Assembly (NCBI RefSeq): GCF_003044305.1
Contig: NZ_PZOX01000005.1
Span: forward strand, 195,493 to 259,492
Length of the DNA: 64,000 nucleotides
From: Vitiosangium sp. GDMCC 1.1324
GTDB lineage: Bacteria > Myxococcota > Myxococcia > Myxococcales > Myxococcaceae
Direction of reading: 5' to 3'
The translations under genes and the position numbers were made by a program. Position 1 is the stretch's first letter; each line of letters opens with the position of its first letter. The notes beneath the pieces are model-generated. The model saw only the letters and a list, made by a program, of their open reading frames with translations, had not been told where the DNA came from and made no database searches. Positions 1,732-60,626 of this stretch are shown here, piece after piece.

Positions 1732-1745
1732 CCACCCTCCTGTCA

Positions 1746-9685: not shown

Positions 9686-9694
9686 CGGACCTGC

Positions 9695-24514: not shown

Positions 24515-24865
24515 AAGCAACACCTCGACTGGAGTCACAGCCCCAGGGCAGGAGGGGAGCGTCAGGGGTATCCCCTCTTGCATTGGAGACTGCCGGAGCG
24601 TCCTCCAGGAAAGACAAGAGATGACCTTGAGGTTCAGCGCATTGTGCCGCGTCATATTGCTTGGCTTCGGCATCTCCGGGGGATTTCAGCAGAAATCCTG
24701 ACAAACTTTAGGACTCATTGGCGTTGCAAACAAAACCCTAGGACTCATTGGCGTTGCAAACAACAAATACCCTTCGCGCTCTCCCGCCCGGCATCTCCTC
24801 ACTCAAACAGCACAGAAGTATGACCACCAATCAAGTATCCTGCCCTTAAGCTAGAATCCGATAAC

Positions 24866-29368: not shown

Positions 29369-29657
29369 GCCTGCCCGCCGCACCTTGAATAATCGTGGGC
29401 TCGCCTCCTGACCTTGCGTGAGACTTCAGCCTCACCCAAGCGCCGGTGGCGAGCCCCGAGCCCACCTCCTCCTGGTGCAGTCGCCAGTGCTTGGCAGCGA
29501 GTTCCGGTGGTCACTTCCGTCCACCAGGTGGACACATGTGTCCACCTGGCCTCAAGAATGGACGTTTTCGTCCATCCCCCGCCAGCTTGCGACACAGGCT
29601 TGGTAGCCAACGGACGACCTCCAGGTTGCGTCGCTTGATTCCCAGATTCACATCGGT

Positions 29658-36521: not shown

Positions 36522-37924
36522 GTGTGCCCCGCTATCGCAGCTATCCGGATTTGTCGGAGGTGCCCGGTAGAGTGGGAGCACCTAACGGAGGCGCCGATGA
36601 CTCCCACGCTGCTGGTGTTGCTGCTGCTCACCCAAGCGGAAGCGCCTGACAACCCTCCGGCAGGGGCCCTGGAGCCTCCGGAGTCGGCTTCGCTGGCTGA
36701 AACGTGGCGCTACCTCGCGCGCGTGGATGCCTCGGGACTGGCGCTGCTGTCGCGGGCTGGAGTGGGCACCGAGGAGGGCTTCGTCCAGGTGGAGCCCACG
36801 CTGATTCTCGACGGGGGCGAGGAACTGGGCGTCAACCTGGGTGCTCCCGTGCGACTGCGCCTGGGGCGCGGCGGTGAGGGCGCGGGCCTCGTTCGCCGCG
36901 AGGACTGGGACAGCCTCTCGGATTGGGGGCAGCTCGTGCGCGGCCTCAAGCTGGGCTCGGACAGCGCGCCCGTGGCGCTATGGGTGGGCGGACTCGAGTC
37001 CTACAGCCTCCTCTCGGGGCACCTCATCCGCCGCTACTCCAACCGCACCAACCCGGACTACCACCCGGCGGGCGCATTCCTCACCGGCACGCTGGGCCCG
37101 GTGTACTCCGAGGCCTTCGCCTCCGACGTGCTGGGCGCGCGCCTCATGGGCGCGGAGGTGGCGCTCGACGTGCAGCACCTCCTCTTCGGCCAGCCCAAGG
37201 AGCGCGGACGCTACACGCTCGCGGTGTCGGCCGTGCATGACTGGGGCAGGGCCGAGGGGCGGACTTCCCCGGTGACGCTGGCACACGTGAACGGGACGGC
37301 AGTGGTGGTGGTGCGCCCGGGCTTCGAGGCGCACGTGCTCGCCGGCTGGGGGGACGGCCGGGCGTGGGTGGCGCGTGGGGCACAGTGGTGGGAGCGGGCG
37401 CGGATGCAGTGACGCCCACGCTGGACATGACGCTGCGGCTGGAAGTGCGCAGGCAGCACGGCGGCTTCCGCCAGGGCTATGTCGGCCCGGACTACGAGCT
37501 GGCGCGCTTCCGGGCCGCGGGCCCCGAGGGCGTGCCGCTGGCCGAGGCGCGCTTCCCGGACGGCTTCTCCGCCTACGGCGAGGCGGTAGTGGGCTGGGAT
37601 GCCGTGCGCTACGGCGGGCTGTGGAAGCAGTTGCAGCTTTCGCTCGCCGCCGAGACCTTCACCTGGGGCCGCTTCGACGTGGACGGGCGCGTGGCGGTGC
37701 AGCTCTTCGACCGCAACCTCGAGGTGGCGGTAAAAGGGCTGGCGGTGGGCCTGGGGCAACCCGGGGCACGCTACCTGGGCGACGCCGAGGTGCGCTGGCG
37801 CCTCTTCGGCGGGCGCCTATATGCGCTGGGCACGGGCGGCACGCTGCTGTTTCCGGAAGGGATGGGCACGCTGCGGCCGGGGGCCTTCGCCTCCGTGGGC
37901 CTGGGGGTGGACAATGCGCGCTGA
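36522..37924 (+). pseudogene. Secreted hypothetical protein split into two overlapping frames (36522..37412 and 37364..37924). The probable frameshift lies near a G6 homopolymer, so this is either a genuine pseudogene or a homopolymer sequencing error.
   Basis: The signal peptide is MTPTLLVLLLLTQAEAPD. Both frames show coding-like GC3 bias and overlap at 37364-37412. The G6 run CTGGGGGGAC lies at ~37346-37355. Confidence 0.4.
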
Positions 37925-43447: not shown

Positions 43448-43897
43448 CTACTCCTCGGCAGGGCTCTCCAGCACCTTGGCTACGCGAATCAGCCGCTTCA
43501 CCTCCCCGGGGCTCCACCCGCGAAGCATGCGCACGAACTGCCGCAGCTCGGGTGAGAGGCTCCCCTCGGGGGTGGGCTGCGCCAGCGTAGCGGCCACGTC
43601 CGTGCGGCTGAGCTCGAGCAGCACGTCGGCGGAGATTCCGAGCGTGAGGGCCAGCTTCCGCAGCGTGGGTACGGACGGCATCATGCCTCCGCGCTCAATG
43701 CGTCCGTAGACTTCGGGGGCGAGGCACGTCTGCTTCGCCACCTGGGCCTGGGTCAGCCCCAGCCGCTCGCGGACCGTGCGGCAGACTTCACCGAGAGACT
43801 TCTGAAGGTGTTCGAGTTCCATGGGTTGTCTCCACAGGGTTCCGGCCCGCCCGAGCGTTCCGGGGGTATTCGTCCTTTGCTGCTCGGCGCGGCTCAC
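43448..43897 (-). CDS. XRE-family helix-turn-helix regulator.
   Basis: LGEVCRTVRERLGLTQAQVAKQTCLAPEVYGRIERGGMMPSVPTLRKLALTLGISADVLL is a classic Cro/C1-type HTH. Confidence 0.55.
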   Translation of the reverse strand: MSRAEQQRTNTPGTLGRAGTLWRQPMELEHLQKSLGEVCRTVRERLGLTQAQVAKQTCLAPEVYGRIERGGMMPSVPTLRKLALTLGISADVLLELSRTDVAATLAQPTPEGSLSPELRQFVRMLRGWSPGEVKRLIRVAKVLESPAEE

Positions 43898-44298
43898 CTG
43901 GCGCGCGGCGCCCGCTTCCGGGCCTTCGCCGCGCGGGACTTCGCCACCATGGAGCGCGCCAGGGTGGCGAGCGCGGCGTGCTGCACCGGCGTCAACGTGC
44001 GAATTGTCCGGAGGAAGCGCCGCACCTCTGGGGTGTCATCCACTGCTTCGCTCGTCGGTACGAGCCAGGGTGGCGGCTGCTTCAACTGGAAGCCCAGCAG
44101 GGTGTTCGCATCCAGCTCCAGCGCGTCGCACAGCCGCAGCAGCGTGGGCACGCTGGGCAGCATTCGCGCCCGCTCGATGCGGCCGTAGACGGCAGCCGCG
44201 AGGTGAGTGCGTTCGGCCATCTGCGCCTGGGTGAGGCCCAGGCGCTGGCGGGTGTCCTTGGCTACCTTGGCGAGGTGGTGTTGCAGGGCCGTGGGCAT
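43894..44298 (-). CDS. XRE-family HTH regulator, paralogue 2.
   Basis: VAKDTRQRLGLTQAQMAERTHLAAAVYGRIERARMLPSVPTLLRLCDALELDANTLLG. It has a 4-nt overlap with the downstream paralogue. Confidence 0.55.
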   Translation of the reverse strand: MPTALQHHLAKVAKDTRQRLGLTQAQMAERTHLAAAVYGRIERARMLPSVPTLLRLCDALELDANTLLGFQLKQPPPWLVPTSEAVDDTPEVRRFLRTIRTLTPVQHAALATLARSMVAKSRAAKARKRAPRAR

Positions 44299-44310
44299 GA
44301 GCGCGCTCCC

Positions 44311-44724
44311 TCAACGTGCGGCCTGTTTGGGTGGGCGTGGGCCGGGCGCACTCCCCATGAAGCGGGCCACATTGGTGAGCGCGTCCACCTGCTTCGCCCC
44401 CAGCCGGCGCACGGAGCGCAGCAAGCGGCGAAGCGCGGGCCGCTCCTCGGAAGGAGGCGCGGCCTGGGCGAGCCACGGCGGCGGGGTGTCGGTGACGAGT
44501 CCCAACAACGAGTTGGCGTCCACGCCGAGAGCGCGGCACAACCGCAGGAGGGAAGGCACGCTCGGGAGCATGTGGCCACGCTCCAGGCGGGCGTACACCT
44601 CCGTGGCCAGCTCGGCGCGCTCGGCGACTTCCGCCTGCGTCAGCCCAGCACGAGCGCGTGCCTCACGGGCCGCGGCCCCCACGTGGCGTGCGAGCGAAAA
44701 GTCCCTCTTGTTGACGGAGCCCAC
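44311..44724 (-). CDS. XRE-family HTH regulator, paralogue 3, with a GTG start.
   Basis: REARARAGLTQAEVAERAELATEVYARLERGHMLPSVPSLLRLCRALGVDANSLLG. The 642-aa ORF 44311..46239 is an artefactual frame extension. Confidence 0.5.
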   Translation of the reverse strand: MGSVNKRDFSLARHVGAAAREARARAGLTQAEVAERAELATEVYARLERGHMLPSVPSLLRLCRALGVDANSLLGLVTDTPPPWLAQAAPPSEERPALRRLLRSVRRLGAKQVDALTNVARFMGSAPGPRPPKQAAR

Positions 44725-44732
44725 GGTGCACC

Positions 44733-45911
44733 TCAGTGAGCGTCTCCGGGCTCGCGGCCCGTCAGGTCCGGGGGCAGCGGAAACACGCCTTCTTCCACGT
44801 CCGGGTGGGCTTGCAGCTTCCGCAAGTCCGAGGCCTCCTTGAGGATGTCGCTCAGTTCCGCCTCGGCCTCCCTTGCACCATAGGGCCGCCCCGGACGAGC
44901 GTGCAGGAAGTCCCGCAGGTCGTAACGCATGTCGTCCGCCGACGGGTAGCGGTCCGAGGGGTTCTGCTGCAACGCCCGGGCGACAATCTTCTGCAGAGGA
45001 GCGGGCAGGTCCTTCGCCGCGTGCTCCACCTCTTCCGGGCCAAAGTGCAGCACGCGGTTGGCCAGCGCCTCCAAGGGCAGCAGTGTGGAGCGCTCGGCGC
45101 GCACCTCGGGAGGCAATCGCTCGTCGAGGTCCTCCCACAGTTTGTCGGGCGGGTCCAACGGGTAGCGCGCGAGCAGCATCTCGAGCAACACCAGGCCCAG
45201 CGAGAAGATGTCGGCCCTGCCGTCCAGCTTGCGGGGCGTGAGGGGGTCTCGCTGGCGGGCCTCCGGCTTGAGGAAGCCGCGGAGGACTTCCGGAGCGATG
45301 TAGGCCGGGTCTCCCCGCAGCAGCCCACGGCGCGTGGGAATGCGGCCGAGCAGCTCCGAGTAGGCCGCGCCGAAGTTGGTGAGCTTGACGCGGCCATTCT
45401 CCCCCAGGCGGATGCGCATGGGGCCCACGGCGCGGTGGACGAGCTTGAGGGGGTTGCCGTCCTCGTCCTCGCAGCGGTGCGCGTAGTCGAGCGCGTCGGC
45501 CACCTCGCCGGCCACGTACGCGGCGAAGTCGGGGCTCAGCCTGCGCCCCACCAACCAGGCAGCGTCCATGAGGGTGAGGAGGAAACAGCCGCGCAGGTGC
45601 TCCATGACGATGTAGGGCACCTCGTCGTGCACCACGTAGCCGTACACGGTGGCGATGTTGGGGTGGCGCAGGGTCTTGGAGAGCGTCACCTCCTCCAGCG
45701 CCCGGTGCCGGGCCTCGCGCCCGTGCTCCATGACAATGGGCTTGAGGACGATGAGCTTCACTGGGCCGCCTCCAAGCGGCTCTCGCGTGGCGAGCAGGAG
45801 GGTGTCGTAGTCGGGGTGCGCGACGAGGCGGCGCACCACCTCGTAGCGAAAGTCGCCCACGGTGAAGGACGTGAGGGGCATGGGCCCGCCGGGTTTCTTC
45901 GGTTCGGACAT
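44733..45911 (-). CDS. Protein-kinase-like protein, a predicted pseudokinase.
   Basis: The kinase fold is recognisable (VKLIVLKP, TLRHPNIATVYGYV, APEVLRG). The catalytic loop is HRAVGP (HRD to HRA) and DFG is replaced by TNFG, so both catalytic Asp residues are lost. Confidence 0.55.
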   Translation of the reverse strand: MSEPKKPGGPMPLTSFTVGDFRYEVVRRLVAHPDYDTLLLATREPLGGGPVKLIVLKPIVMEHGREARHRALEEVTLSKTLRHPNIATVYGYVVHDEVPYIVMEHLRGCFLLTLMDAAWLVGRRLSPDFAAYVAGEVADALDYAHRCEDEDGNPLKLVHRAVGPMRIRLGENGRVKLTNFGAAYSELLGRIPTRRGLLRGDPAYIAPEVLRGFLKPEARQRDPLTPRKLDGRADIFSLGLVLLEMLLARYPLDPPDKLWEDLDERLPPEVRAERSTLLPLEALANRVLHFGPEEVEHAAKDLPAPLQKIVARALQQNPSDRYPSADDMRYDLRDFLHARPGRPYGAREAEAELSDILKEASDLRKLQAHPDVEEGVFPLPPDLTGREPGDAH

Positions 45912-45961
45912 GGAAGGCTCGTGGGAGTGAGGGAAGTGAAAAGGAGGTTGCGGCGGCGGAG

Positions 45962-47302
45962 TCAGTGGACGTTTCCCAACCCCGTCTCCGGCAACGGCGA
46001 GGGCTTGCCTGCCTCAACGCCAACAGGGCCCGGCAGCCGTCCAAGGTCGGCCGCATCCATGAGGATTTCAGCGGCTTCCTCGGCGGCCTCCTTCTCGCCG
46101 TAGGGCGTCTGAAGCGAGTGCAGGTAGTCGTACAAGTCAGTGTGCATGTCGCTCGAGGTGAGGTAGCGCTCGTCCGGGTTGTCTCGGAGGGCCCGCGCGA
46201 TGATTCGCCGGAGAGCCTCGGGCAGCTCGTCCGCCGCACGCCGCACCTCCGCAGGCCCGAAGTGCAGTACGCGATTGGCGAGCGTCTCCAGCCTCACGAG
46301 CGCCGCCTCGTCGCTGAGGACGCTGGAAGGGAAGCGCGCCTTGAGGTCGAGCCACAGCGGCTCGCGCTGGTTGCGCGGGTAACGCGCCAGCAACATCTCC
46401 AGCATCACCAAGCCTAGGGAGAAGACATCGGCCCTCTGGTCGAGCCCCGGGGGAGAGAGTGGATCTTCGTGGCCCTTCTCTGGCTGGAGAAAGCCGCGAA
46501 GGATTTCAGGAGCGGTGTAGGCCGCATCGCCTCGGACGGGTGCCCCTGGGGAGGGAGGATGCTCGAGCAACTCCGTGTACATGACGCCCAGGTGAGTGAG
46601 CTGAACGCGGCCGGTGACGCCCACGCGAATGCGCCGGGGACCAATGGCGCGGTGGACGAGGTGGAGGGGTTTCTCATCGTCCTTCTTGCCGTGGAGGTAG
46701 AGGAGTGCGTCCGCCAGCTCCGTGGCCGCGTACGCCACGAAGGAGGGGGACAGTCTGCGCCCCACCGCCACGGCCGCATCCAGCAGGGTGAGGAGGCAGC
46801 AGCCGCGCAGGTGCTCCAGGAGGATGTAGGGCCGCGTGTCGTCGAAGACGCAGCCCCAGACGCCAGCGAGGTTGGGATGGCGTGTAAGGCCCGCGCGCCG
46901 CACCTCCTCGATGCATCGGTCCACCGTCGCGGAGGGATACTCGTGCGGGAGGAAGGGCCTGAGCTCCACCAACCTGGGCTGGCCCTCCATCTCCGGGTAG
47001 CCGTTGAGGACGAGCTGGCGGGAGGCGAGCAGCCCCGACTCATAGTCGGGGTGGGTGCCCACGTCGCCGTGGACTTCGTAGCGGTAGCGGCCCCATTGGA
47101 AGCCGAAGCGTGGCGCGGGGCGCGGAGAGGAGACAGTCACGGTGGGAGTCCCGGGAGTGGAGGGAGTGCCTAATGAGTGACTACGAGGGCCGGGACGGCC
47201 ACGGGCCGCCATGTGTCCGTCTCGTCCTTCATGTAGAAGGTGCCCACCTCGAAAGTGCCCGCTCGGTAAGCCCCGTCCTGCACTCCCACGGGGCCCACGC
47301 AC
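45962..47302 (-). CDS. Second pseudokinase paralogue.
   Basis: LVHRAIGPRRIRVGVTGRVQLTHLGV. HRD has become HRA and DFG has become HLG. Confidence 0.5.
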   Translation of the reverse strand: MRGPRGSAGRGLPSGHFRGGHLLHEGRDGHMAARGRPGPRSHSLGTPSTPGTPTVTVSSPRPAPRFGFQWGRYRYEVHGDVGTHPDYESGLLASRQLVLNGYPEMEGQPRLVELRPFLPHEYPSATVDRCIEEVRRAGLTRHPNLAGVWGCVFDDTRPYILLEHLRGCCLLTLLDAAVAVGRRLSPSFVAYAATELADALLYLHGKKDDEKPLHLVHRAIGPRRIRVGVTGRVQLTHLGVMYTELLEHPPSPGAPVRGDAAYTAPEILRGFLQPEKGHEDPLSPPGLDQRADVFSLGLVMLEMLLARYPRNQREPLWLDLKARFPSSVLSDEAALVRLETLANRVLHFGPAEVRRAADELPEALRRIIARALRDNPDERYLTSSDMHTDLYDYLHSLQTPYGEKEAAEEAAEILMDAADLGRLPGPVGVEAGKPSPLPETGLGNVH

Positions 47303-48680: not shown

Positions 48681-49388
48681 CTACCGGACCGACGCCAGCG
48701 GATTGAACGGGGGCCTCGGGCTGCACCGAGGCGGCGCAGGCGATAGACCCCCTCCTTTTTCGGACGGCATTTCATACTCAAGGCCCTGTCCGTCCCGAAC
48801 CTCCTCGTGTCGGGTGGGAAGGAAGAGCCCACAGCCCAGGTGACGGCGCCCACCCAGTCCCTGCGTTTGGAGGCGCAGGGAGTCCTCTGGCGCGAGGCCT
48901 CCCACCGTGAGGGCAAAGCCCACGACCTTTCTCCCCGCGATGGACAGGATGCGCCGTCGGCCCAGGGTCAGCGTCCCCTCGCAGCGCAGTTCCCTCAGGA
49001 ACTTGCGCGTGGAGAGCTCGAAGGTGGCGGCGTCCAACGCGTGCTTGAAGGTGACGAGCCGAGCGGACAGCGAGGGGGCTGCCGCCAGGGGGTGGATCTC
49101 AGGCCTTCCCAGGCGGACTTCCCGGCCCGCGAGGACGAGTGCACTGCACGCGAGCGGTAGGAAGAATGCGAGGGAATCCGCTGGACAGCGCAGACGCAGC
49201 GCGCCTCTTCCCAGGTGGAGGACCTGGGCATCGGCTCTCGTGCCACGCAGGGTGAAGACACCGACGTCATGGCGCTCGTGCAGCCCAGGAAGCCGACGGG
49301 AGAGTGCCGAGAACAGCAAGTAACCGTGATCGAGCGGCACCGGGCCGCCGCGCACGGGAAACAGAATATCGATGACAGGCGAAGTCAT
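48681..49388 (-). CDS. cas6: Cas6 crRNA-processing endoribonuclease (type III-associated).
   Basis: MTSPVIDILFPVRGGPVPLDHGYLLFSAL... has a C-terminal Gly-rich loop GLGGRRHLGCGLF (GhGxxxxxGhG). It overlaps the cmr6 stop by ATGA. It is the last gene of the cmr operon. Confidence 0.6.
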   Translation of the reverse strand: MTSPVIDILFPVRGGPVPLDHGYLLFSALSRRLPGLHERHDVGVFTLRGTRADAQVLHLGRGALRLRCPADSLAFFLPLACSALVLAGREVRLGRPEIHPLAAAPSLSARLVTFKHALDAATFELSTRKFLRELRCEGTLTLGRRRILSIAGRKVVGFALTVGGLAPEDSLRLQTQGLGGRRHLGCGLFLPTRHEEVRDGQGLEYEMPSEKGGGLSPAPPRCSPRPPFNPLASVR

Positions 49389-50512
49389 GCACGAAGCCTC
49401 GTGAGGAGCTCTTCGAGCCGTTGCTGCTCCTCGGGACGCTTGAGGTTCAGGTACTTCTTGAGGAGGCGCGCCGCCTCGAGCCGCTCCGGCTCCGTCAACG
49501 CCAGCAGTCGATTCACCCATTGCTGCTCCACCTGCTGGAACTGCTGTCGCTGGCCCACGGTGCGCGCTTTCTGCTCCTCCAACCAGGTCTTCAGTTCCAT
49601 CACGGCCGGAGTCTCCAGACTCTTGCCGGGTTGGAGGCCCGGTGTCTCCGGAACGAGCCGCCCGTACCCGGTCGCGGTCTTTCCTCCCAGGCCCCAGGAC
49701 TCCAACGCCTCGCCCACGTAACGGCCCGCCCGCTCCAGCAGCACTCGCTCGCCCCTCGCCTCCAGTACCACCAGGAAGCGATTGCCCGGCGCCACCGTCA
49801 AGAATGACACGGGGTTGGGATCGTCGAAGTCCACGGGCCATTCCCCGCCCCCGCTCTCGTAATACCCACGCTGATGCACGGTGAGCACGTCTCGCGCCAA
49901 CATCGGCCCACTCCCCTTCTCCGGCGGGATCCACAGCGCATCGTGGAAGGTCACCTCCCCCTGGCTGCCTTTCTCCGATACCTCGTCCACCTCCGGAGCA
50001 CCGAACAGCCGTCGGAACACCCGGCCTGGAACCCGGCTCGGACGAGAGAGCTCCCAGGTCGTCCCACGGAAGGGCTCACGCTCGGGCTCCTCAATATCGG
50101 GATCCGGGCCATACACCGTCTGAACGTAATGGGCCGTGAGTCCCTTGAGGGCCGAGCCGGGCAGCACGGGCACTCCCCAGGTATGGTGCAGCGTCAGCCC
50201 GACTCCGGTGGCCGACGAGGTGCCGTGCCCCACGAGGATCCGGCTCTCCGCCCGTACGATGAAGCAGAGGGTGTCTGGACCCTGGAAGGATTCCTTCCAA
50301 CGGCGATAGGCCTGTGCATAGCGAGGCGGCTCGCGGCACCGGGACAGAAGCTCCAGCCATCGAGTCCGAAGTTCCAGCCACCGCTTGCGCTCGACGGGGT
50401 CTTCTCGCAACAGGGCCAGGGGCGCACACCGGGTGTACCCCAGGCCCACGTGGCTCGGCACCTGCCCGGGGGTCTCCGGGCACCGGTCCTCACCGTCCGC
50501 CTTCAGCCACAT
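49385..50512 (-). CDS. cmr6: Cmr6 (Cas7-group RAMP).
   Basis: ILVGHGTSSATGVGLTLHHTWGVPVLPGSALKGLTAHYV is the RAMP G-rich loop GSALKG. Start choice among in-frame Met codons is uncertain. Confidence 0.6.
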   Translation of the reverse strand: MWLKADGEDRCPETPGQVPSHVGLGYTRCAPLALLREDPVERKRWLELRTRWLELLSRCREPPRYAQAYRRWKESFQGPDTLCFIVRAESRILVGHGTSSATGVGLTLHHTWGVPVLPGSALKGLTAHYVQTVYGPDPDIEEPEREPFRGTTWELSRPSRVPGRVFRRLFGAPEVDEVSEKGSQGEVTFHDALWIPPEKGSGPMLARDVLTVHQRGYYESGGGEWPVDFDDPNPVSFLTVAPGNRFLVVLEARGERVLLERAGRYVGEALESWGLGGKTATGYGRLVPETPGLQPGKSLETPAVMELKTWLEEQKARTVGQRQQFQQVEQQWVNRLLALTEPERLEAARLLKKYLNLKRPEEQQRLEELLTRLRA

Positions 50513-50903
50513 GGCTTCGCTCCTCCTGCGTGAAGGTGGCCTGCACCGCGCGCCGGAACCACACCAACAGCTGAAGCAACTCACGGGTCGCCAGCATGTA
50601 GTCGCTCATCTCGAGCCGCCGCACCGCATCTGGAAGCTTCACGCCCGCCGTCCGGGGAGGCCCGGGGAGCAGTGCGTCGGCGAGATCCTCAAGGAGCCGT
50701 CCCACGGGCTTGTCGTGCTTCGCCTTCTCGGACTCCAGCTCACGCTCGAGGAAGGCCAGCGCCGCTGCCAGGCCATTGCGCAGCACGGCGGCGCCGAGGG
50801 AGTGGACGTGCATCGCATAGTCCGCGCGCTCGCCCGGGGGCACGCGCATGACCCGCTCGTAGGCGTGGAGGGCTCGCGTCTGCTGCCGCGTCCGGTGGGT
50901 CAT
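50490..50903 (-). CDS. cmr5: Cmr5 small subunit.
   Basis: MTHRTRQQTRALHAYERVM...HSLGAAVLRNGLAAALAFLERE is a 137-aa all-alpha protein. It shows an ATGA overlap with the cmr4 stop and a GGAGG-like ribosome-binding site. Confidence 0.6.
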   Translation of the reverse strand: MTHRTRQQTRALHAYERVMRVPPGERADYAMHVHSLGAAVLRNGLAAALAFLERELESEKAKHDKPVGRLLEDLADALLPGPPRTAGVKLPDAVRRLEMSDYMLATRELLQLLVWFRRAVQATFTQEERSHVAEGGR

Positions 50904-51811
50904 GGCCGTGCCTCCCTCTGAGCGCCGGGCCATGCCGCCAGCCGGCACCTGCCCCGGCCCACGGTGGCCTTGCCACCCAGTTGCAACAGCGTTGTCCCCT
51001 TCAGCGCCCGGTCGAGCACCTCCGTCGCGCTGAGATCGGTGCCCCGGCGCAAGCTACGTCCCGCGGCCAGCACCCCTACCAGGAGGGTCTCCGCGGGCAG
51101 GCTCTCTTCCTGCCAGAGCGCTCCCTGCACCACCGTGCCGGTCCCGGGGTCGATTCGCACGCGCGTCTCCACCTGGGTGGCCGTCTCCAGGAGGAAGCTC
51201 ATCGTCTCGTCGTCTACCACGGCGAAGCGCTCGCGCAGCCCTTCCTCTTCCTCGGGCCAGGTCCGAGCGAGGAAGCGTGCCCAGGCTTCCACCGCGGGCT
51301 CCACCTGGGTGTCCAGGTCCAGATCCTCCAGCAAAAGCCTGCGGTGCTTGGGCGACACGGTGATGTTGCCCTCCCCCACCCGTGCGCCAGTCACGGGCAG
51401 CCGCTTCATGCGCCCCGGTAAGCCCTCGAGGCCCGTCAGGTCCCTGCGCGCCAGTTCCAGCAGGAGCGGCGAGGACACCCACGCGAAGGCGCCCAGGAAG
51501 CTGCGCACGGGCAGCGCCACCAGCCGCGCATCTCCCACCACCAGCGCACCGGCATGGTCTCCTTCCCGGGTCTCGTCTCCCGCCGCGCCGCTCGTCTCGC
51601 GCAGAGGGCCGAAGAGGGCCTCCCGCTCCTCCGAAGGCAGGTCCCGGTGTGCATCGCGCAGCACGCCCTTGAGCGAAGAACCGGGGACGAAGGGGATGTT
51701 CGTCGCACGCAACCTCGCGATGGGTAGGTCGATGAGGCCCACGCTCTGCCCCGTCCCCGCGTGCAGGGGAGAGAGGGCGTGCAGCAGGTAGGGCCGGGTC
51801 TCCATGCTCAT
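50900..51811 (-). CDS. cmr4: Cmr4 (Cas7 backbone subunit).
   Basis: MSMETRPYLLHALSPLHAGTGQSVGLIDLPIARLRATNIPFVPGSSLKGVLRDAH shows the Cmr4 thumb and G-rich loop. It overlaps the cmr3 stop by ATGA. Confidence 0.7.
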   Translation of the reverse strand: MSMETRPYLLHALSPLHAGTGQSVGLIDLPIARLRATNIPFVPGSSLKGVLRDAHRDLPSEEREALFGPLRETSGAAGDETREGDHAGALVVGDARLVALPVRSFLGAFAWVSSPLLLELARRDLTGLEGLPGRMKRLPVTGARVGEGNITVSPKHRRLLLEDLDLDTQVEPAVEAWARFLARTWPEEEEGLRERFAVVDDETMSFLLETATQVETRVRIDPGTGTVVQGALWQEESLPAETLLVGVLAAGRSLRRGTDLSATEVLDRALKGTTLLQLGGKATVGRGRCRLAAWPGAQREARP

Positions 51812-52983
51812 GTGTTCATCTCCTCGGGGTTCCAATGCCCGGGCAGTACCCGCCCCAGGCCCTCCTCGCGGCCACTGCCCCAGGGGGCCAGCCAGAGAGT
51901 GCTCAGCGCGGTGAAGGGAAGTCCGTCCACCCGCTCGAAGAAATAGACCGAGCCCGCGGGCACCAGCCGCCGGGTGGCGCGAGCCCTCCGCTGGACCATG
52001 TCCCAGGTGGACAGTTCCAGGGGCCGGTTCACCAGTGCCGCGCGGAGCACCACCTGCCCTTCGACTCCCGGCAAGGTGCCGACCCACGCGGGACATCCCT
52101 CGTACTCGGCACGCTCCAGACCATCCGGCAGCCAGCCGCGTTGGAATTGCGCGGGCGTGGCCAGAATCAATCGCAGCCCGGGCGAGCGCTCCGGCAGTCC
52201 CCTGGGCGCCGCGAAGAGCCCGGGGGACACACGCTCCGCCAGCGTCAACCGCCGCTTGCCACCCAGTCCCAGCGGTCCCCAGGGAAAGCCCGGAGCCTCG
52301 GTGGGCAGCGTGCACTCCAGGCCCAGGGCCCACTCGCGGGCTCCGTTACCGAGGGGTTCGCGGCAGAGCATCTCCAGGATGGGCGTCTGGTACAGCATGC
52401 CGGGCTCCGCGGTCTGGGTGTCGGGGTTCAAGGTCACCCGCACATCGACACGCCAGGGAGGACCGGACTGGCCGCGAGATTTTGGAACCTCGCCGCGCAG
52501 CCAGCCGCTCAGGGCCTCCTCCGTCCAGAACGGCGGCAGGGGCCTCGGCTTGCCCGGCGGGAGCACGGGGCGCCACAGGGCCTCCAGCGCCGCATCGTCC
52601 TCCGTGCCCAGGGTCGCGACGCCGCGCGAAGGCCGCCGGGGGAGAAGTCGCTGGAGACCTCCGTCCACGGCCAGGGCATCCGCCGACACGGGCCACATGC
52701 GGTGCTCGGGGGCGAACTCCTCCCCGAGGGGCCGCAGGAGGGCCAGCACGGCTCCGAGGGCAACTTCCCGGGTCTCCCGCTCCCACTGTTCGGGAGATAG
52801 GGTGCGCGAGGAGCGGGCCATGAGGGACTGGCCCCAGGCCGCCCGCAGCGCGCCACGAATCGTGGAGGGGGGAGGCCAGGGGTGGGAATGGCTCCGCCCG
52901 ACATCGCTGGTGTACCAGCCACGGCCGTCCTTGCAGAACAGCCCATCACGCGGCAACAGGGCCAGGCACGCCGTCGTGCTCAT
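51808..52983 (-). CDS. cmr3: Cmr3 (Cas5-group RAMP).
   Basis: The N-terminal motif is MSTTACLALLPRDGLFCKDGRGW (L.PrD.lf.rDgRpf). It is 391 aa and overlaps the cmr2 stop. Confidence 0.6.
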   Translation of the reverse strand: MSTTACLALLPRDGLFCKDGRGWYTSDVGRSHSHPWPPPSTIRGALRAAWGQSLMARSSRTLSPEQWERETREVALGAVLALLRPLGEEFAPEHRMWPVSADALAVDGGLQRLLPRRPSRGVATLGTEDDAALEALWRPVLPPGKPRPLPPFWTEEALSGWLRGEVPKSRGQSGPPWRVDVRVTLNPDTQTAEPGMLYQTPILEMLCREPLGNGAREWALGLECTLPTEAPGFPWGPLGLGGKRRLTLAERVSPGLFAAPRGLPERSPGLRLILATPAQFQRGWLPDGLERAEYEGCPAWVGTLPGVEGQVVLRAALVNRPLELSTWDMVQRRARATRRLVPAGSVYFFERVDGLPFTALSTLWLAPWGSGREEGLGRVLPGHWNPEEMNT

Positions 52984-54803
52984 GCTGCACCTCGGGTATC
53001 ACCCCGCGGCCGGAGGGTGGCGCGCGAGAGCAACTCCGCCAGGAACACGCGCTCCGCCCAGGCCTCCACCTGGACGTGGAGCTCCTCCAGGGTTCCTTCT
53101 TCCTTCAAGTCCAATCCCGCCTGCTGGGGTGTGAGTCCCGCCCCGGGAGTACCTGCCTCCACGCGGGCCAGCACCCGCCGCACCTCACCCACCAGCATGG
53201 GCCGCCAACGCGCCTCGTCCTGAGGCGAACCAGCGTGGCGGGGAATGCGCCGCAGGGCCGTGGACACATCACGGACCTTCGTCATGGGCAGCGTGCCCGC
53301 CTTCCGCAGGGTGATGGTGTCCTCGAGCGCCTTCACGGGCCCGTCGGGCCAGCGCTGCCGCCAGGCGTGCTCACGGCCGGAGCGCAGCCGTGCCAGGAGC
53401 GCGAAACCATTCCGGTCCTCGCCCTTGGCCAACTGCTCCGCGCGCCGCCCGAGGTCCAGCAAATCCCCGAGGCTCTCCAGGACATGGCCCACCCCCAGCC
53501 CCACCGAGAGCGTGGGCGCGTTCACTCCCGCCCGGCTCTGGAGCTCCTGCTCCATGGCAGCGGCGAAGGCCCGCGACAACTCGGCGGCGCAGCTCAGCGC
53601 GTCCGGAAGACAGACGAAACCCAGCACGTCATCTCCACCGGCGTAGACCAGCACGCCCCGGTGCCGCTCCTCGAGGATGCGCCGGGCCTCGGTGGCGAAG
53701 TCGGAGAGCGTGCGAGACAACGACTGGTGCGCGGCGGGGCCATGAGAGGCCAGGGCATGAAGCGTCTCTCCCATCTTGTCGCCGTCCGCCACGAGGCAGG
53801 CCACATAGGGGAAGGGCTCACCCAGGGTGGCCAGCAAGGGCCGCACGAAGTCCTGGCCGAAGCGCTCCGCGTCCTGGCGCCCCATTCCCTGCTCCTCCAG
53901 GTACGTGCTCCACCGGCCGGGCAGCAGGAGCTGTGCGTCGAAGGGGAAATCACGCACCCACTCTCGGTCCCCCGCCTGGACTGGCGTCAGGACTCCTTGG
54001 TCGCGCAGCCGCACACACTCCCGGCGGAGCCTCTCCATCGCCGGGGGCTGGGTGTGCTTCGCGAGCGCCGTATAGGCGGCGAGGCCGATGGTCGGGACGG
54101 GGATGAACTGCCCGGGCTGTCCGCCCGTGCGCTTGAGCAGACCGATGGCGTCCAGTTCCTCACGCTGGCCGATACGGAAGCGGCGCCAGTCGCCCCCCTC
54201 ACGCCTCCCCTCCCGCAGCACGGACTCGCGTGCACCATCCAGGCTGGACTTGTGGCGGCCGCCCCGCTGGTGTTGCCACGGAGAGAATGGGCGCAGCCGC
54301 TTGCGCTCGGCCAGCGCGGCTTCCGCGAGACGTAAGGCCCTGGGGTACTCCTCCGGCGTGGTGAAGGGACACCAGGCGGCATGGAACTCCAGGAGGGTGT
54401 CCAGTTGCTCCTGGGCGGTGCCGAGAGCGCCGGGGTCCACGAGCTGGGGATGCTTGCGCCAGACCTCCAGGCCCCATTCGCGCAGCCGTGTGCGCGCCGC
54501 CTCCCGCGCAGCCCGCGCCACCTCGCGAGGCTCCCCCTGCCGCACGAGCACCAAGAGCTTGTTGGGGACGCTGGGGGCGGCCTCCTGCCCATCCACGAAG
54601 GCGGGGAAGATGAGCTCGGCCCGGAGCCGCTGGGCGGTGCGGGCGGCCTCGAGGCTCAGCTCGCTGAGCACATGGCTGCCGAACCACAGGTCCCGGGTGC
54701 GCCGGGCCTGGGCGATGAAATCCTGCACGGGACCGAGGCTCATGAGGAGCAGGTGCGCGGTGCTCACGTCGACTCCTTCACGCCACTGAAACCCTTCACC
54801 CAC
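52980..54803 (-). CDS. cmr2: Cmr2/Cas10 short form, lacking an HD domain but with an intact GGDD cyclase motif.
   Basis: The N-terminus reads LLLMSLGPVQDFIAQARRTRDLWFGSHVLSELS, as in the Cmr2 N-terminus. The Palm2 motif VLVYAGGDDVLGFV is present. At 607 aa there is no room for an HD nuclease domain. Confidence 0.75.
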   Translation of the reverse strand: MGEGFQWREGVDVSTAHLLLMSLGPVQDFIAQARRTRDLWFGSHVLSELSLEAARTAQRLRAELIFPAFVDGQEAAPSVPNKLLVLVRQGEPREVARAAREAARTRLREWGLEVWRKHPQLVDPGALGTAQEQLDTLLEFHAAWCPFTTPEEYPRALRLAEAALAERKRLRPFSPWQHQRGGRHKSSLDGARESVLREGRREGGDWRRFRIGQREELDAIGLLKRTGGQPGQFIPVPTIGLAAYTALAKHTQPPAMERLRRECVRLRDQGVLTPVQAGDREWVRDFPFDAQLLLPGRWSTYLEEQGMGRQDAERFGQDFVRPLLATLGEPFPYVACLVADGDKMGETLHALASHGPAAHQSLSRTLSDFATEARRILEERHRGVLVYAGGDDVLGFVCLPDALSCAAELSRAFAAAMEQELQSRAGVNAPTLSVGLGVGHVLESLGDLLDLGRRAEQLAKGEDRNGFALLARLRSGREHAWRQRWPDGPVKALEDTITLRKAGTLPMTKVRDVSTALRRIPRHAGSPQDEARWRPMLVGEVRRVLARVEAGTPGAGLTPQQAGLDLKEEGTLEELHVQVEAWAERVFLAELLSRATLRPRGDTRGAA

Positions 54804-56092
54804 CCCAGAAACGCTTCCTCGAGGTTCTCCGCGACGAGGGGCGCGTAGAGCGCGGTATCCCCCGGTGCCAGGAGCCGGTCGAAGGGCGCCGCGGAACCCC
54901 GGACGGGCTCACGCGCCTTGCCCATCAGCACGACCTGGCCCTTCTCGGGCCACGCGCGGCGAAGCCACAGCGCGATGGGGACGAAGGAGCCATCCGCCAG
55001 GGGCATGGCCTTGACGATCAACGGAGAAGCGAACCGCTCGCGGACCCGCGTTCCATCATGCCAGCGCAGCTCGACGTCCGGAGGTTCGGCATAGGGCGCT
55101 CCCCTGCCCCCCGGCGTCTTGGGCCGGGCGGTGCGTTGGAAGCGAATGGCCAGAGGCAGGCCGAACCCCGCGCGAGGCCAGGCCACGGCCTTGCCGGCGC
55201 AGGCGGGCCGGGGCGGGTGGGCCCAGGAAGTCCCCTTCGGAGGGGAAAACAACTGGCGGACCTTGTCGGCCTCCGGCCAGTAGGAGCGTCCCGGTCGCTC
55301 TGGCCTGGGCTCCCGGGCGGTTGCACTGCGGCCCTCGCCCTTCTTCCCGGGCGAGGCCACACGCGAGCCCTGGGGAAGACGTCCCTCGCCCTGGCGGAAC
55401 TCCCGCAGCCAGCCCAGCGCCACCTCCCAGGCATCATCGGCGCCCGGCCGCGAGGCGCCGTAGAGCAATCGAGCCCCCCGCAACAGGGGCACCTGTTTGG
55501 CCCCCCCCGGAGGGAGCGCGCCGAACAGGGGCAGCTCCGGGAAGAGCCGCGACCACTCCTCGCGCGTGGGCTGCCGAGGCAACCACGCCGCCGCGTCGTC
55601 CACGACGGTGAGCGCACCGAGCCCCCGGCGGGTGCGACTTCCATATCCCCCCCAGAGCACCCAGGCCCGGAGAGCGCCTTCCACCTCGGAGAAGCGCTCC
55701 GCCGGGGCGAGGAGGTGGAGGTGGAAACACAGCGAGGAGTGCCAGCGTGGGGCGAGGGGCTTGCTCGCGACCCAGAGGGCATAGGCGCCCCGGGCTCTCT
55801 GATCGATGCGCCCATCGTCCCGGGACACGGTTCGCGGCTCCACCTCCACACGCACTTCCACGCGAGAGCGCGTCCCCTGCTCCTTGCCCATCCCACCCCA
55901 GAGCTCGCGCTCCCGGCGGGCCAGCTCCGCGGGCGTGGCGCACGCGTGCCCATGGAGCGCCCGCCACCAGAAGCGCAGGTGGCCTCGAATCGACGGCGCG
56001 CGAAGGGGGTCCAGCTCGTCCAATTCCCGGGCGGCGGACGAGCCACCGAGGATGGGCGTGATCGTCTTCAGCCGCACCCGCAGCGACTTCAT
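54764..56092 (-). CDS. cmr1: Cmr1 (Cas7-group RAMP).
   Basis: The start is MKSLRVRLKTITPILGGSSAARELDE...PSIRGHLRFWWRAL after a GGAGG ribosome-binding site. This is the classic Cmr1 RAMP start. The 773-aa ORF 54764..57085 is an upstream frame extension. Confidence 0.65.
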   Translation of the reverse strand: MKSLRVRLKTITPILGGSSAARELDELDPLRAPSIRGHLRFWWRALHGHACATPAELARRERELWGGMGKEQGTRSRVEVRVEVEPRTVSRDDGRIDQRARGAYALWVASKPLAPRWHSSLCFHLHLLAPAERFSEVEGALRAWVLWGGYGSRTRRGLGALTVVDDAAAWLPRQPTREEWSRLFPELPLFGALPPGGAKQVPLLRGARLLYGASRPGADDAWEVALGWLREFRQGEGRLPQGSRVASPGKKGEGRSATAREPRPERPGRSYWPEADKVRQLFSPPKGTSWAHPPRPACAGKAVAWPRAGFGLPLAIRFQRTARPKTPGGRGAPYAEPPDVELRWHDGTRVRERFASPLIVKAMPLADGSFVPIALWLRRAWPEKGQVVLMGKAREPVRGSAAPFDRLLAPGDTALYAPLVAENLEEAFLGWVKGFSGVKEST

Positions 56093-56151
56093 CGGAGGCC
56101 CACCCGTGAGACGCCGGGCCCGCGGCGCCGGGTCTGGCAGGGCGTCGTTGC

Positions 56152-57963
56152 TCACGTGGACCGGCTCCTTCCCGGGGCGTCGAGCAAGGTGCGGTGTTGG
56201 TCGAACAGCCCCTCGAAGAGCAGCCGCAGCTCGTCCTGGATTTGCTCCCGAGAGCACTCGTCCCAGCGGCGGAGCGCGAGCAGCAGCGCACGCACCCAGC
56301 CGGGCTCCTTCGTGCGAACCAGCTCCCTGCGGTAATAGAGGGCCAGTGTCAGGGTGTCGTTCTTGTCCAGCCCTTCCAACTTCACGCGCAGTTGGCTGTA
56401 GCTCTCGTGGGGATCCGGGAAGGTGGGCAGCCCCGCGACCTCGATGAACACCCGCTCCAACGCCGGCTGCTCCTCCCTGGCCAGAGCGGCCGTGGAGAAC
56501 CGGCAAGCATGGAAGAGCCAGATGAGGTAGCGCCGCAACCGCCGCTCGGGAAGGGTCTGGATGGGGCGCTCCGGCTCGAAGACGCGAACGCTCTCCAACG
56601 CGTTCCAGATGATGTTCGCGAGGGCGTGTGATGGAGGCTGGGCGGTCGCGGCCCGATGGCTCCGCCGCCAGGCCAATGCCACCTCGACGGAGACCACGTC
56701 CGCGTCGTAATCCACCGCCTCGAGCACCCACCCCGTGCGGCCACTGCCGCTGTAGCTGTAGGAGGTCAGGCCTCGCTGCTGGACATGGTAGGCCTCGTGG
56801 ACGAGGAGCAGCCGGATGCACTCGTCCCAATCTTCTTTCGAGCCCAGGCGCTGGCGCAGGGCCCGGAAGCCCTCCAGCAGGTCGACGGGGAACTTCCAGG
56901 TTCCGGCCTGATAGCGGAACAGGGGCGTCCTCTCCGTCGCGGGCGTGGTGTCGATTTGACTGTCCAGGAGGACCCGCCCCCCGAGCCGCTCGACCAGTGT
57001 CTGTTGCTCGGGTTGGCGCAGCCACTCGACCAACTGCTGGTGGATGCCGATCACCTTCTTGAGCTCTTCCTGGATCTCCTGCCACTGCTTGGAGGTGAGC
57101 GTCTCCTCCCGTGCTGCGGCCAGACGGCGCCGAGGGCTGATCTGATGGACGGCGAGATACTGGCCCTGCTCGCGATTGAAGTGGTGCAACCCCAGGGGGT
57201 GCTGGGTCTGGGCGTTGATGGCGGTCCCCAGCGCGGCGGCGAGGCTGCCGGGACAGTCCATGGCCAGGAGCACCGATCCGGCGCCCTCCAGCCGCTCGTG
57301 GAGGGTGTCGAGCACGGTGCGGAATTGCTCCACCGCCCGCGAGACCTCGCCAGGGTTCTGCAGGGCCCGCTCCGAGGTGCCTCGTACGGGCCGCAGGCAG
57401 ACCGTGGCCAGGATCTCCATGGGGTGGCGTGCCTTGAACTGCGCGAGCGCCGTGTCACGAATGGGGTTGGTGACCTCGACGATGAGCGCCACGTGCCCAC
57501 GGCCCTCCTGCCGCGCGGCGGGAAGACCCTCGACGGTGAAGTAGGGCTCCGGGGTGGAGGGATGGGATCGGTCCGCCATGAGCGACCAGGAACCATCCTC
57601 CCGCGACTGCTGATAGACATACAGCCGCCGGCGCGGCAGACACCACGCCAGGTGCAGCATCAACACCAGGGGCGCGCACCCGAACAGGTGGACGGGCAGG
57701 TCGAGCCCCAGCTCGCGCTCCCGGGCCAGGAGCGCCTCGGCGAACCGCTCGTTCTCATCGAAGGCCCAGCCCCAGTCCTGCTCCCGCTGGGCACGGACGA
57801 GCGTGTCCTTGTTGTACTCATGCAATACGCAGGACGCGACGTCCCGGTCCCCCTCGAAGCCACTGTGCTTCAACGCCTCGCGCGCGGTGTTCTCGGCCAC
57901 GGGGCGGTCGTGCTCGTAGCGAAGGATGAGGGCCTGGGTCCTGGGTGTCAGGGCAATGACCAT
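56152..57963 (-). CDS. Large type III-associated accessory protein of unknown function. It is a candidate cyclic-nucleotide sensor/effector (SAVED/CARF-like region is a hypothesis) with a C-terminal HExxH...E zincin-like motif.
   Basis: The 603-aa ORF ends 60 nt upstream of cmr1 on the same strand and directly follows the SMODS nucleotidyltransferase gene. The C-terminal region contains LLVHEAYHVQQRG...WVLEAVDYD. There is no signal peptide. Domain assignment is not alignment-verified. Confidence 0.45.
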   Translation of the reverse strand: MVIALTPRTQALILRYEHDRPVAENTAREALKHSGFEGDRDVASCVLHEYNKDTLVRAQREQDWGWAFDENERFAEALLARERELGLDLPVHLFGCAPLVLMLHLAWCLPRRRLYVYQQSREDGSWSLMADRSHPSTPEPYFTVEGLPAARQEGRGHVALIVEVTNPIRDTALAQFKARHPMEILATVCLRPVRGTSERALQNPGEVSRAVEQFRTVLDTLHERLEGAGSVLLAMDCPGSLAAALGTAINAQTQHPLGLHHFNREQGQYLAVHQISPRRRLAAAREETLTSKQWQEIQEELKKVIGIHQQLVEWLRQPEQQTLVERLGGRVLLDSQIDTTPATERTPLFRYQAGTWKFPVDLLEGFRALRQRLGSKEDWDECIRLLLVHEAYHVQQRGLTSYSYSGSGRTGWVLEAVDYDADVVSVEVALAWRRSHRAATAQPPSHALANIIWNALESVRVFEPERPIQTLPERRLRRYLIWLFHACRFSTAALAREEQPALERVFIEVAGLPTFPDPHESYSQLRVKLEGLDKNDTLTLALYYRRELVRTKEPGWVRALLLALRRWDECSREQIQDELRLLFEGLFDQHRTLLDAPGRSRST

Positions 57964-58002: not shown

Positions 58003-58889
58003 TCAGGGCCCCCGCTGCCGGTAGAACTCGCCGAAGAGCTCCCGCAGGCGCCCGTGGGCCCGCGGAGGATCCGAGTCGCTCTCGTCCCTCGCGAGCCGCA
58101 CCTGTCTCGCCGCGCTCGCCAGCAACTGATGGGCCGCCGTCTTCTGGTTGGAGGTCATCCGCTCATCCACGGCGGGGCCCAGCCCGGCGGGATCCGGACA
58201 CGTCCCCAGCACCTTCTGGCTCAGGTGGGAGAAAAGCCTCTCCAGCCCGTCGAGGTAGTCCCCGGGGGGCGAGGGAAACGCGCTGTAGCTCATCACCTCC
58301 AGATGGAACGAGCCCAGGGGGCTGGACGGGTGATGTCGGTTCCAATGCTTGACGGCCTTGAGGAGCGGCTTGAGCTTCTTGCCTGCGGCCTCGTTGGCCT
58401 CCGTGCTCAGAGTCTGGTGGATGCGGGGATTGGTGGAGATCCATCGCCCCGTTTCCCGCTCGGGGATGAGGAAGGTGTCCCGCCCCGGCACCGAGAACGC
58501 GGGCACGACGTCGAACTCGTTTCCCGAGTCCGTGAAGCCGATGTGCACCGAGTGCTGCTGGAGGATCGGAAGGCTCTTGTTGGACCACTTGTCGTGAAGC
58601 GCCTGCTGGACCTGCTTGAGCGCATCATCCGCCGTCAGCCCCCCTGCGAGGTGAATCGGGGTGGATGAGAGGACATCTCCCCCAGCACGACGAAGATGTC
58701 GATGTCATGCAGTGGCCGGATAGCGGTGTGGCGGCTGTAGGAACCGGAGAGAAAGTCCGTCTTCGTGTTGAGCCGCTTCCGCAAGGCCTCGCGCACCAGG
58801 GTGTGCTGCCGGCTGACCTCGTCCCGCTGTCCCTGCGTCAATTCCAGGGACTGGATGAACTTCTCCAGGCCCTCACGCACGCTCCACAT
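58003..58889 (-). pseudogene. SMODS-type (CBASS cGAS/DncV-like minimal) nucleotidyltransferase interrupted by a frameshift at a G6 homopolymer. This is either a pseudogene or a sequencing indel.
   Basis: The N-fragment (58635..58889) carries the SMODS signature GSYSRHTAIRPLHDIDIFVVL. The C-fragment (58003..58548) continues with ...ADDALKQVQQALHDKWSN...SGNEFDVVPAF, the second acidic motif. The two fragments are out of frame around CAGGGGGGCTGA. One extra or missing G restores a single ~295-aa ORF. Confidence 0.6.
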
Positions 58890-58968: not shown

Positions 58969-59808
58969 TCAAGGCAGGAGGCTCAGGACGTCCGCCATGG
59001 AGGGGCGTTCCGGGGCCTTCTTGGCCAGCAGGCGAGCCAGCAGCGAGCGAAGGGCCACGGGCGCCACCCCCTCCAGGAGCTCCAGCGGGGGCGGCCGGGC
59101 CACATGACAGAACATCAGGCTTTGCTGCGCCTCGGCGATGAAGGGCGGGCGGCCCGTGAGCAACTGGAATCCGAGAATTCCGAGCGAGTAGACATCGGCC
59201 CGGTCATCCACTGTCTTGGAACGAGTCCACTGCTCGGGGGCCCTGTACTCCCCGGTCCCTAGGAGCGCGCTCCCCGCCGTCGAGACCGGGAGTGCGGCGA
59301 GCCCGCTCCCGGTGGCGAGCCTCTTGGCGAGCCCGAGGTCGGCGAGCTGGACCTTCCACGCCCCCGGCTCCCGCTGGGAGACCAGGATGTTGGCGGGCTT
59401 CAGGTCCCGGTGAACGAGGCCCCGCGCATGCAACAGGGCCAGGACCTCCGCCAGTTGGCGGAGCACCTGGACGCAGTCGCGAACCGCGAGGCGGCCTCCC
59501 TCATGGACGAGCGCATGGTGGAGATCTTCCGGTTGCCACGCCAGGACCATGAAGGGACGGCCCTCCAGGAGCACTCCGGATGCCTGGGCACGGACCAGGT
59601 GCGGGTGCCGGAGCTCCTGGAGCGTCCGCGCCTCATTGAGGAAGCGGGCCACCACCTCGGGGTGGAGGCACCACTCCGGACTCAACACCTTCACCGCTAC
59701 GAACTCGCCCGAAGTGGCGTGCCGCCCCGCGTAGACCTCACTCGTGGCGCCCACCGCCACACAGCGCACGATGAGGTACTCACCCACGCATGTGCCAGCT
59801 GCCAGCAT
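58969..59808 (-). CDS. Small Ser/Thr protein kinase (catalytic domain only).
   Basis: YLIVRCVAVGATSEVYAG...AVKVL...HRDLKPANILV...ADLGLA...GTGEYRAPE. The in-frame N-terminal extension to 60216 is probably not translated, because the ECF sigma gene occupies that region in another frame. Confidence 0.55.
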   Translation of the reverse strand: MLAAGTCVGEYLIVRCVAVGATSEVYAGRHATSGEFVAVKVLSPEWCLHPEVVARFLNEARTLQELRHPHLVRAQASGVLLEGRPFMVLAWQPEDLHHALVHEGGRLAVRDCVQVLRQLAEVLALLHARGLVHRDLKPANILVSQREPGAWKVQLADLGLAKRLATGSGLAALPVSTAGSALLGTGEYRAPEQWTRSKTVDDRADVYSLGILGFQLLTGRPPFIAEAQQSLMFCHVARPPPLELLEGVAPVALRSLLARLLAKKAPERPSMADVLSLLP

Positions 59809-59819
59809 CGAGGGCTCCG

Positions 59820-60626
59820 TCAGCTCGAGGCGGAAGGCTGAAGGGCGCGCAGCTTCTCCAGCCAGTGCAGCAGCCCCCGAAGCTCCTCGGCGCACTCCGG
59901 ATAGCCCGCGGCGAAGGCCTCGGGCTCCAGGGGTCTCCCCTCCTCGCGCCGTCTGAAATAGGCGGCCAGGGCCGCATCCACCCGGTTGCGGGAGAGGACC
60001 GCATCGGGATTCTCCTCGGACTCCTCTTCCGCCGTGCCTTCCATGCGCGCACGGAGGGCCCGCAGACCCCGCTGCAGCAGCGACTCCACGGCTTCCTTGG
60101 AGCGGCCGAGTCGCTGCGCGATGCCTCCCACCGTCGAGTCCTGGAGGTAGTAGAGCGACAGGGCTTCGCGCTGGGCGTCGGGGAGCTCGTAGAAGTGCGT
60201 CAACAATCGACGCCACTCCTCCTGGTGGGAGGAGACCTGGCTCGGGCTGCGCTGGGGAGCGGGCAGGCCCTGGGCTTCGGAGCTGTCCAGGGGGAGCGCT
60301 CCCCCGTCATCCCGCTTCTGGCTGCCCGCCTTGCGTAGCATGTCCACCCAGCGCGAGTGGAGCACCTGCTCCAGCCAGACCCGCCATTCTCCCTCGGCCG
60401 TGCCCCGGAAGGAGGCGAAGCGCTGGAACGCCCCCAGCGCCGCCTCCTGGGCGACATCCGAGGGCCGAATTCCTCCCGGCGGCGAGCGCCCAATGCGCCG
60501 GGCCGCCCACCTGTCCAGATCGGACTGGCTGCGGCGGAGCAATTCCTCCCAGGCGCCCTGCTCCCCCTCTCGCACCCGGTGCAGCAGCGCCTCGATGGAC
60601 AACTCAGACAGGATGGATGAGCTCAT
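59820..60626 (-). CDS. ECF-type sigma-70 family factor with a C-terminal extension.
   Basis: Region 2 reads LLRRSQSDLDRWAARRIG...DVAQEAALGAFQRF. Region 4 reads PDAQREALSLYYLQDSTVGGIAQRLGRSKEAVESLLQRGLRALR. An ATGA overlap with the upstream kinase-STAND gene is present. Confidence 0.6.
   Translation of the reverse strand: MSSSILSELSIEALLHRVREGEQGAWEELLRRSQSDLDRWAARRIGRSPPGGIRPSDVAQEAALGAFQRFASFRGTAEGEWRVWLEQVLHSRWVDMLRKAGSQKRDDGGALPLDSSEAQGLPAPQRSPSQVSSHQEEWRRLLTHFYELPDAQREALSLYYLQDSTVGGIAQRLGRSKEAVESLLQRGLRALRARMEGTAEEESEENPDAVLSRNRVDAALAAYFRRREEGRPLEPEAFAAGYPECAEELRGLLHWLEKLRALQPSASS

Follow-up and report, generated by a model that had tools for sequence, protein, structure and literature searches.

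A CBASS cyclase gene split by a one-base lesion beside a type III-B CRISPR-Cas operon in Vitiosangium: probably a sequencing or assembly error

Introduction

When a defence gene appears broken in an assembled bacterial genome, the question arises whether the organism has lost the gene, switches it on and off, or carries an intact copy that was misread. This question is raised by a stretch of 64,000 nucleotides (hereafter, the window) of the draft assembly of Vitiosangium sp. GDMCC 1.1324 (contig NZ_PZOX01000005.1, positions 195,493–259,492), in which a SMODS nucleotidyltransferase gene is divided between two reading frames at a short homopolymer. The initial annotation offered three outcomes: a sequencing or assembly indel, a genuine inactivation, or a phase-variable switch. 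As described below, the first is the best supported, by a second gene with a like lesion, and the last is not supported.

Position and Size of the Lesion

The two fragments described in the initial annotation are indeed present on the minus strand, the first running from 58889 to 58635 and the second, in the −1 frame, to a stop codon at 58003–58005 (Table 1); the CD-NTase (SMODS) gene as a whole occupies 58889..58003 and is broken after codon 84. The ORF of the N-terminal fragment opens at 58889 (MWSVREGLEKF...), with an AGGAG Shine-Dalgarno sequence 5 nt 5' of the ATG. The −1 frame is open from about 58704 to its stop and reads LTADDALKQ...FGEFYRQRGP; a canonical start codon is absent from this C-terminal fragment, and the RefSeq forms begin at a CTG (211 aa) or an ATT (217 aa).

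Table 1. Features of the window discussed in the text (positions are those of the window).
Feature	Position	Strand	Remarks
Second frameshifted gene, conserved myxobacterial 442-aa protein	36597..37924	+	One base missing at G6 37348-37353
Type III-B CRISPR-Cas operon	48789..56155	-	All genes intact; directly downstream of effector
CBASS effector, 603 aa	56152..57963	-	Intact; N-terminal SAVED sensor and C-terminal M48-like zinc metallopeptidase, HEAYH motif
C-terminal CD-NTase fragment	58003..58641	-	Residues about 84-295, -1 frame; D127 and C-terminal helical domain
N-terminal CD-NTase (SMODS) fragment	58635..58889	-	Codons 1-84 and premature TGA 58637-58635; RefSeq WP_255415181.1, 84 aa
Homopolymer at frame change	58639..58644		C6 on plus strand, G6 in gene sense strand
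Ser/Thr protein kinase	58969..59808	-	Conserved upstream module
ECF-type sigma factor	59820..60590	-	Conserved upstream module
STAND NTPase / Ser-Thr kinase / TPR protein, about 1130 aa	60623..64000	-	Heads module; start at or beyond window end

The proposal that a single frameshift separates the fragments is correct, as one added base gives an ORF of 295 aa. The run responsible had been placed at about 58631–58636, 8 nt away from the actual C6 at 58639–58644, and it had been suggested that either one more or one less G would restore the frame. When run lengths were simulated, G7 (+1) gave a single ORF of 295 aa and G4 (−2) one of 294 aa, and with G5 and G8 the frame was still broken, so that only the first half of that suggestion stands.

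Protein alignment, DNA alignment and tblastn agree in placing the frame change at codons 83–85, on the run. Frame A is homologous to relatives up to '...FTSQGG' (SQGS, SQRG or AQGG in these), and frame B from 'LTADDALKQ'; the DNA alignment has one single-base gap, at the G6 run; and in tblastn residues 1–84 of the Archangium violaceum orthologue match 58889–58638, and residues 84–295 match 58641–58006. The missing base need not be a G and is perhaps a C adjoining the G6 run, since the closest relatives have AGC-CTG or GGC-CTG where the window has GGC-TG. A break at the G5 run at 58679–58683 was also considered, given that the frame-B reading GGDVLSSTPIHLAGG likewise forms a 15-residue linker, and was rejected: frame A is closer to the relatives (6–7 identities in 15 residues, the terminal SQGG included), and the gap falls on the G6 run both in the DNA alignment and in tblastn.

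There are 39 G/C runs of at least 6 nt in the 64 kb, which have a G+C content of 67.5%. Since such runs cover only about 0.4% of positions, the location of the frameshift on one of them is no coincidence, yet runs of this length are ordinary in the Vitiosangium genome.

Identity of the Cyclase

The ORF repaired with one additional G matches the Pfam family SMODS (PF18144) with 77 bits, against a cut-off of 26.5, over profile positions 3–164 of 164, and the PADLOC model of CBASS cyclases PDLC00823 with 265 bits over positions 2–285 of 285. The repaired protein also matches the chains of PDB entries 6P8U, 6P82 and 6P8J, deposited as 'Nucleotidyltransferase' and which we take to be CdnD of P. aeruginosa (E = 4e-36 to 6P8U). 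In an alignment of 22 sequences, residues G49-S50, D62-I-D64 and D127 are conserved or invariant, and the GS and DxD motifs align with those of the 6P8U chain. Of these, the N-terminal fragment carries G49-S50 and D62-x-D64, and the C-terminal one D127. Neither fragment holds the full active site, and neither can be active alone, because the catalytic residues are divided between the two.

A CBASS CD-NTase is expected to be encoded by an uninterrupted ORF of about 285–300 aa, which is not the case in the assembled sequence, and to lie next to an effector with a cyclic-nucleotide sensor domain, which is the case here (a SAVED and M48-like peptidase gene). Nearly all of the approximately 120 homologues listed are uninterrupted and full-length, the closest of them measuring 271–304 aa, with identities of up to 86%, and the repaired 295-aa ORF aligns with them end to end. 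The initial annotation had recognized the gene as the SMODS/CD-NTase of a CBASS pair adjoining a Cmr operon, and the profile matches and the neighbouring genes agree with it. Judging from these matches, the gene is that of an ordinary CBASS cyclase, a CdnD-like CD-NTase for which cyclic-oligonucleotide synthesis and a role in phage defence are predicted. It shares with clade-D-like CBASS CD-NTases the full-length match, the equivalent GS...DxD...D residues and the SAVED effector directly downstream, and it differs from them in the upstream STAND-kinase, ECF-sigma and Ser-Thr-kinase module and in the interruption of its ORF in the assembly. No genes for HORMA/TRIP13 (Pch2), Cap2/Cap3 or other CBASS regulators adjoin the cyclase. 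Assignment to Type III CBASS (CdnC/CdnD with HORMA and TRIP13) is not supported, the neighbours being the kinase, ECF sigma, STAND kinase, SAVED peptidase and Cmr genes.

The Genes Around the Cyclase

The effector gene starts 39 nt downstream of the cyclase, and its product matches the PADLOC model SAVED_peptidaseM48 (PDLC02018) end to end with 568 bits, with a Pfam SAVED domain and an HExxH motif. In contrast to the PADLOC SAVED_peptidaseM48 systems, the effector gene described here is directly followed by cmr1 of a type III-B operon and overlaps the start of it (48789–57963 on the minus strand for the effector and the operon together). The operon comprises cmr1 (56155–54764), cas10/cmr2 with a GGDD motif (54767–52980), cmr3, cmr4, cmr5, cmr6 and cas6; no CARF effector gene was seen in it, and an array search of the 64-kb window gave no CRISPR array. 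The SAVED effector might respond to signals made by Cas10 too.

The corresponding locus of A. violaceum contains, in this order, STAND kinase, ECF sigma, Ser/Thr kinase, SMODS (295 aa, intact), SAVED, Cmr1, Cas10, Cmr3–Cmr6 and Cas6. When the window was compared with it by tblastn, the 12 flanking genes matched were collinear and gave one HSP each, and SMODS alone was split. The STAND kinase, ECF sigma, Ser/Thr kinase and SMODS genes are syntenic in seven myxobacterial loci (L001–L005, L009 and L010), with SMODS identities down to 53%, and the module recurs in loci of Archangium, Myxococcus and Corallococcus. In five of the seven (L001, L002, L005, L009 and L010), the SAVED-M48 peptidase gene comes next, and, among the loci compared, the module stands beside a Cmr operon only in the window and in one A. 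violaceum genome (L010, 10928–20132). This synteny across seven myxobacterial loci suggests that the predicted CBASS is under kinase and sigma-factor control; a description of such a kinase- and sigma-linked CBASS module was not found.

Other arrangements of these genes were observed. Locus L012 (positions 1–7057; A. violaceum CP069338) carries a paralogous STAND kinase, ECF sigma and Ser/Thr kinase followed by a distant SAVED protein (26% identity), with no cyclase gene between the Ser/Thr kinase and the SAVED gene, inside which the locus ends. Loci L004 (10001–11876), L005 (10001–14889) and L007 (5195–10443) each contain two paralogous SMODS genes, arranged in tandem or separated by a few kb.

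Age of the Lesion

Apart from the frameshift, the split cyclase has no other defect, and it keeps all 52 of the 52 invariant alignment columns. Its dN/dS against four relatives is 0.20–0.33 in the N-terminal part and 0.23–0.35 in the C-terminal part, and among the intact orthologues the values are 0.18–0.38 (0.24–0.38 in the downstream part). Downstream of the break, the frame has been subject to selection for practically its entire history. Given that the residues are kept and that dN/dS resembles that of the intact orthologues, the lesion is either very recent or artefactual.

A Second Frameshifted Gene in the Window

A scan for homopolymers in which a change of ±1 joins two coding-like ORFs flagged the G6 run at 37348–37353. 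One added base joins the ORFs 36522–37412 and 37364–37924 into a protein of 442 aa whose homologues, distributed across Myxococcaceae and Archangiaceae, are exactly 442 aa long and up to 90% identical over 100% of the length; some of them are named 'surface antigen D15' or DUF5723. The repaired junction gives back the invariant motif GWGGRPG. Relatives have TGGGGCGGACGG where the window has TGGGGGGACGG, one base short in the G-rich run, and here also the lost base may be an adjoining C. In tblastn with two relatives, this gene is found in two frames that change at the run, and the other matched genes between 36.5 and 47.8 kb are each in a single frame. Its dN/dS of 0.21–0.29 on either side of the break corresponds to purifying selection. 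Neither half of the gene was found in the protein collection, and therefore RefSeq may treat it as a pseudogene. Loss of the 442-aa gene might be tolerated, given that some relatives have paralogues of it.

A third candidate, at the C5 run at 7303–7307, was discarded, as it is really two genes, the GTG start of one overlapping the TGA stop of the other. The other overlapping ORF pairs on the same strand and in-frame neighbours contain complete and independent Pfam domains where they are matched, several of these ORFs being matchless, and the region from 12.6 to 18.9 kb is collinear with a metagenome contig, with no frame changes.

Error, Loss or Switch

The explanation that we consider probable is that sequencing or consensus calling dropped one base in a G-rich run of this draft assembly of 67.5% GC, and that the actual Vitiosangium gene is uninterrupted, in which case the organism would make an intact 295-aa cyclase. 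It is preferred because a second conserved gene of the same window has a like one-base deletion at a G6 run. With two such lesions in genes otherwise without defect, consensus error is a far readier explanation than two independent recent mutations, and from the observed position and size of the lesion, the intact state of all else and the presence of the second we infer that both are artefacts rather than mutations. The count amounts to two one-base deletions at G-rich runs in about 34 kb of homology-checked sequence, which, extrapolated, would correspond to frameshifted genes by the hundred in each genome, a number that would be more typical of an unpolished assembly than of a free-living bacterium.

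In PacBio assemblies of high-GC genomes, the residual errors are reported to be deletions of a single G or C in short homopolymers (PMC8574707). The lesions described here resemble the long-read indel errors addressed by ARAMIS (PMC8574707) and Kastor (PMC12007338) in that they are single-base deletions in short G/C runs at high GC, that they split intact conserved genes and that they recur within a short distance; they differ in that the base lost at both sites may be a C adjoining the run.

Some observations count against an artefact. Seven C runs of 7–8 nt were called in the window, the run-length spectrum is that of the relatives and runs of at least 7 nt are not depleted; since the spectrum matches that of the relatives, there is no sign of a global under-calling of runs. 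True one-base deletions prefer the same G/C runs, and defence genes are frequently lost. An independent copy of the strain's sequence was not found, the exact-protein matches tracing to one NCBI contig, with no Logan assembly, and the repaired 295-aa protein is absent from a database of 5.8 billion proteins. As a separate observation, the G/C homopolymers of at least 7 nt (at 2915, 17349, 27838, 29763, 55501, 55647 and 61715) are all seven C on the plus strand; this has a probability of about 1.6% by chance, and could reflect either a strand-specific calling bias or a coincidence.

The alternative is that the cyclase has become a pseudogene in this strain through a genuine one-base deletion of very recent date, which would leave the SAVED-peptidase orphaned or dependent on cyclic oligonucleotides from another source. 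This is possible, if rather unlikely. The sequence, as given, is frameshifted, slippage deletions fall preferentially on G/C runs, and the longer runs were called in the assembly without obvious trouble; CBASS genes are toxic and frequently lost, and the paralogous module of A. violaceum has no cyclase between the kinase and the SAVED gene. However, the gene shows no secondary decay, its dN/dS equals that of intact orthologues, and one would have to suppose another recent mutation, independent of the first, for the like lesion in the unrelated conserved gene at a distance of 21 kb. The initial annotation had envisaged that orthologues might be interrupted as well, in keeping with a true pseudogene, but the relatives examined are intact.

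A more specific version of a real break, in which the cyclase is off or switchable and the SAVED-metallopeptidase is driven by cyclic oligoadenylate made by Cas10, is in our view improbable; if true, it would mean that CRISPR signalling has naturally taken over a CBASS effector.

Another way of looking at the G6 run is as a contingency switch, in which slipped-strand mispairing would keep the cyclase ON (G7) in part of the population and OFF (G6) in the rest. Defence genes are phase-variable in some bacteria, and the frame is indeed restored when the tract gains one G (G7), although not when it loses one (G5). As in the poly-G/C contingency loci of Neisseria, Haemophilus and Campylobacter, the length of a homopolymer within the ORF sets the frame; unlike those, the tract is short, unconserved in orthologues, not specific to the gene and known from one assembled length. 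A run of G6–G7 is below the usual hypermutable length, it belongs to the background composition of the window, where 39 G/C runs of at least 6 nt occur per 64 kb, and the orthologues have CAGGGTAGC, CAACGCGGC or CGGGGG at the site, or lack the segment, all of them in frame and with no G tract there. The like lesion in the 442-aa gene, which is not a defence gene, also argues against it. Taken together, these points make the switch very unlikely.

Finally, full-length enzyme could in principle arise if the G GGG GGC before the TGA were a site of programmed −1 ribosomal frameshifting or of transcriptional slippage. Formally, CAG GGG GGC TGA has an X XXY YYZ heptamer with a stop codon behind it, and the shift needed is −1, but this reading is scarcely credible, as no homologue has the two-frame architecture, the folding of the 90 nt downstream is less stable than that of shuffled sequences (MFE of −23.7 kcal/mol against a mean of −27.4, z = +1.12), no Rfam element was found and G-only heptamers are not known as efficient slippery sites in bacteria.

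Other Features of the Window

At 8744–11677, on the minus strand, a caspase-like (Peptidase_C14) ORF of 660 aa precedes a trypsin-like peptidase ORF that shares its frame, and the two could be another protease-based defence or cell-death pair. On the plus strand, a 1742-aa nSTAND1 NTPase with long WD40 repeat arrays is encoded at 29607–34832 and contains internal tandem repeats of 126 nt and 42 nt, and a DDE_5 family transposase gene lies at 22563–23837, with a 30-nt tandem duplicate at 24703–24762 in a low-coding stretch nearby; they may belong to an insertion sequence or mark the border of a mobile region. A cluster at 43451–47302 on the minus strand, made up of three Xre-type HTH genes and two Ser/Thr kinase paralogues, is conserved with loci L011 and L012.

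Significance

If the break is real, it represents an ordinary recent loss of a defence gene, and wider interest would come only from the position of the effector beside the Cmr operon. If, as is probable, the break is a sequencing or assembly error, its consequences lie in how the genome is read. RefSeq lists the halves of the cyclase separately, one of 84 aa and the other of 211 or 217 aa, so that surveys of defence systems may count no CBASS cyclase in this genome, or an orphan SAVED effector. Judging from the second broken gene, the assembly should be polished before its pseudogene calls are trusted.
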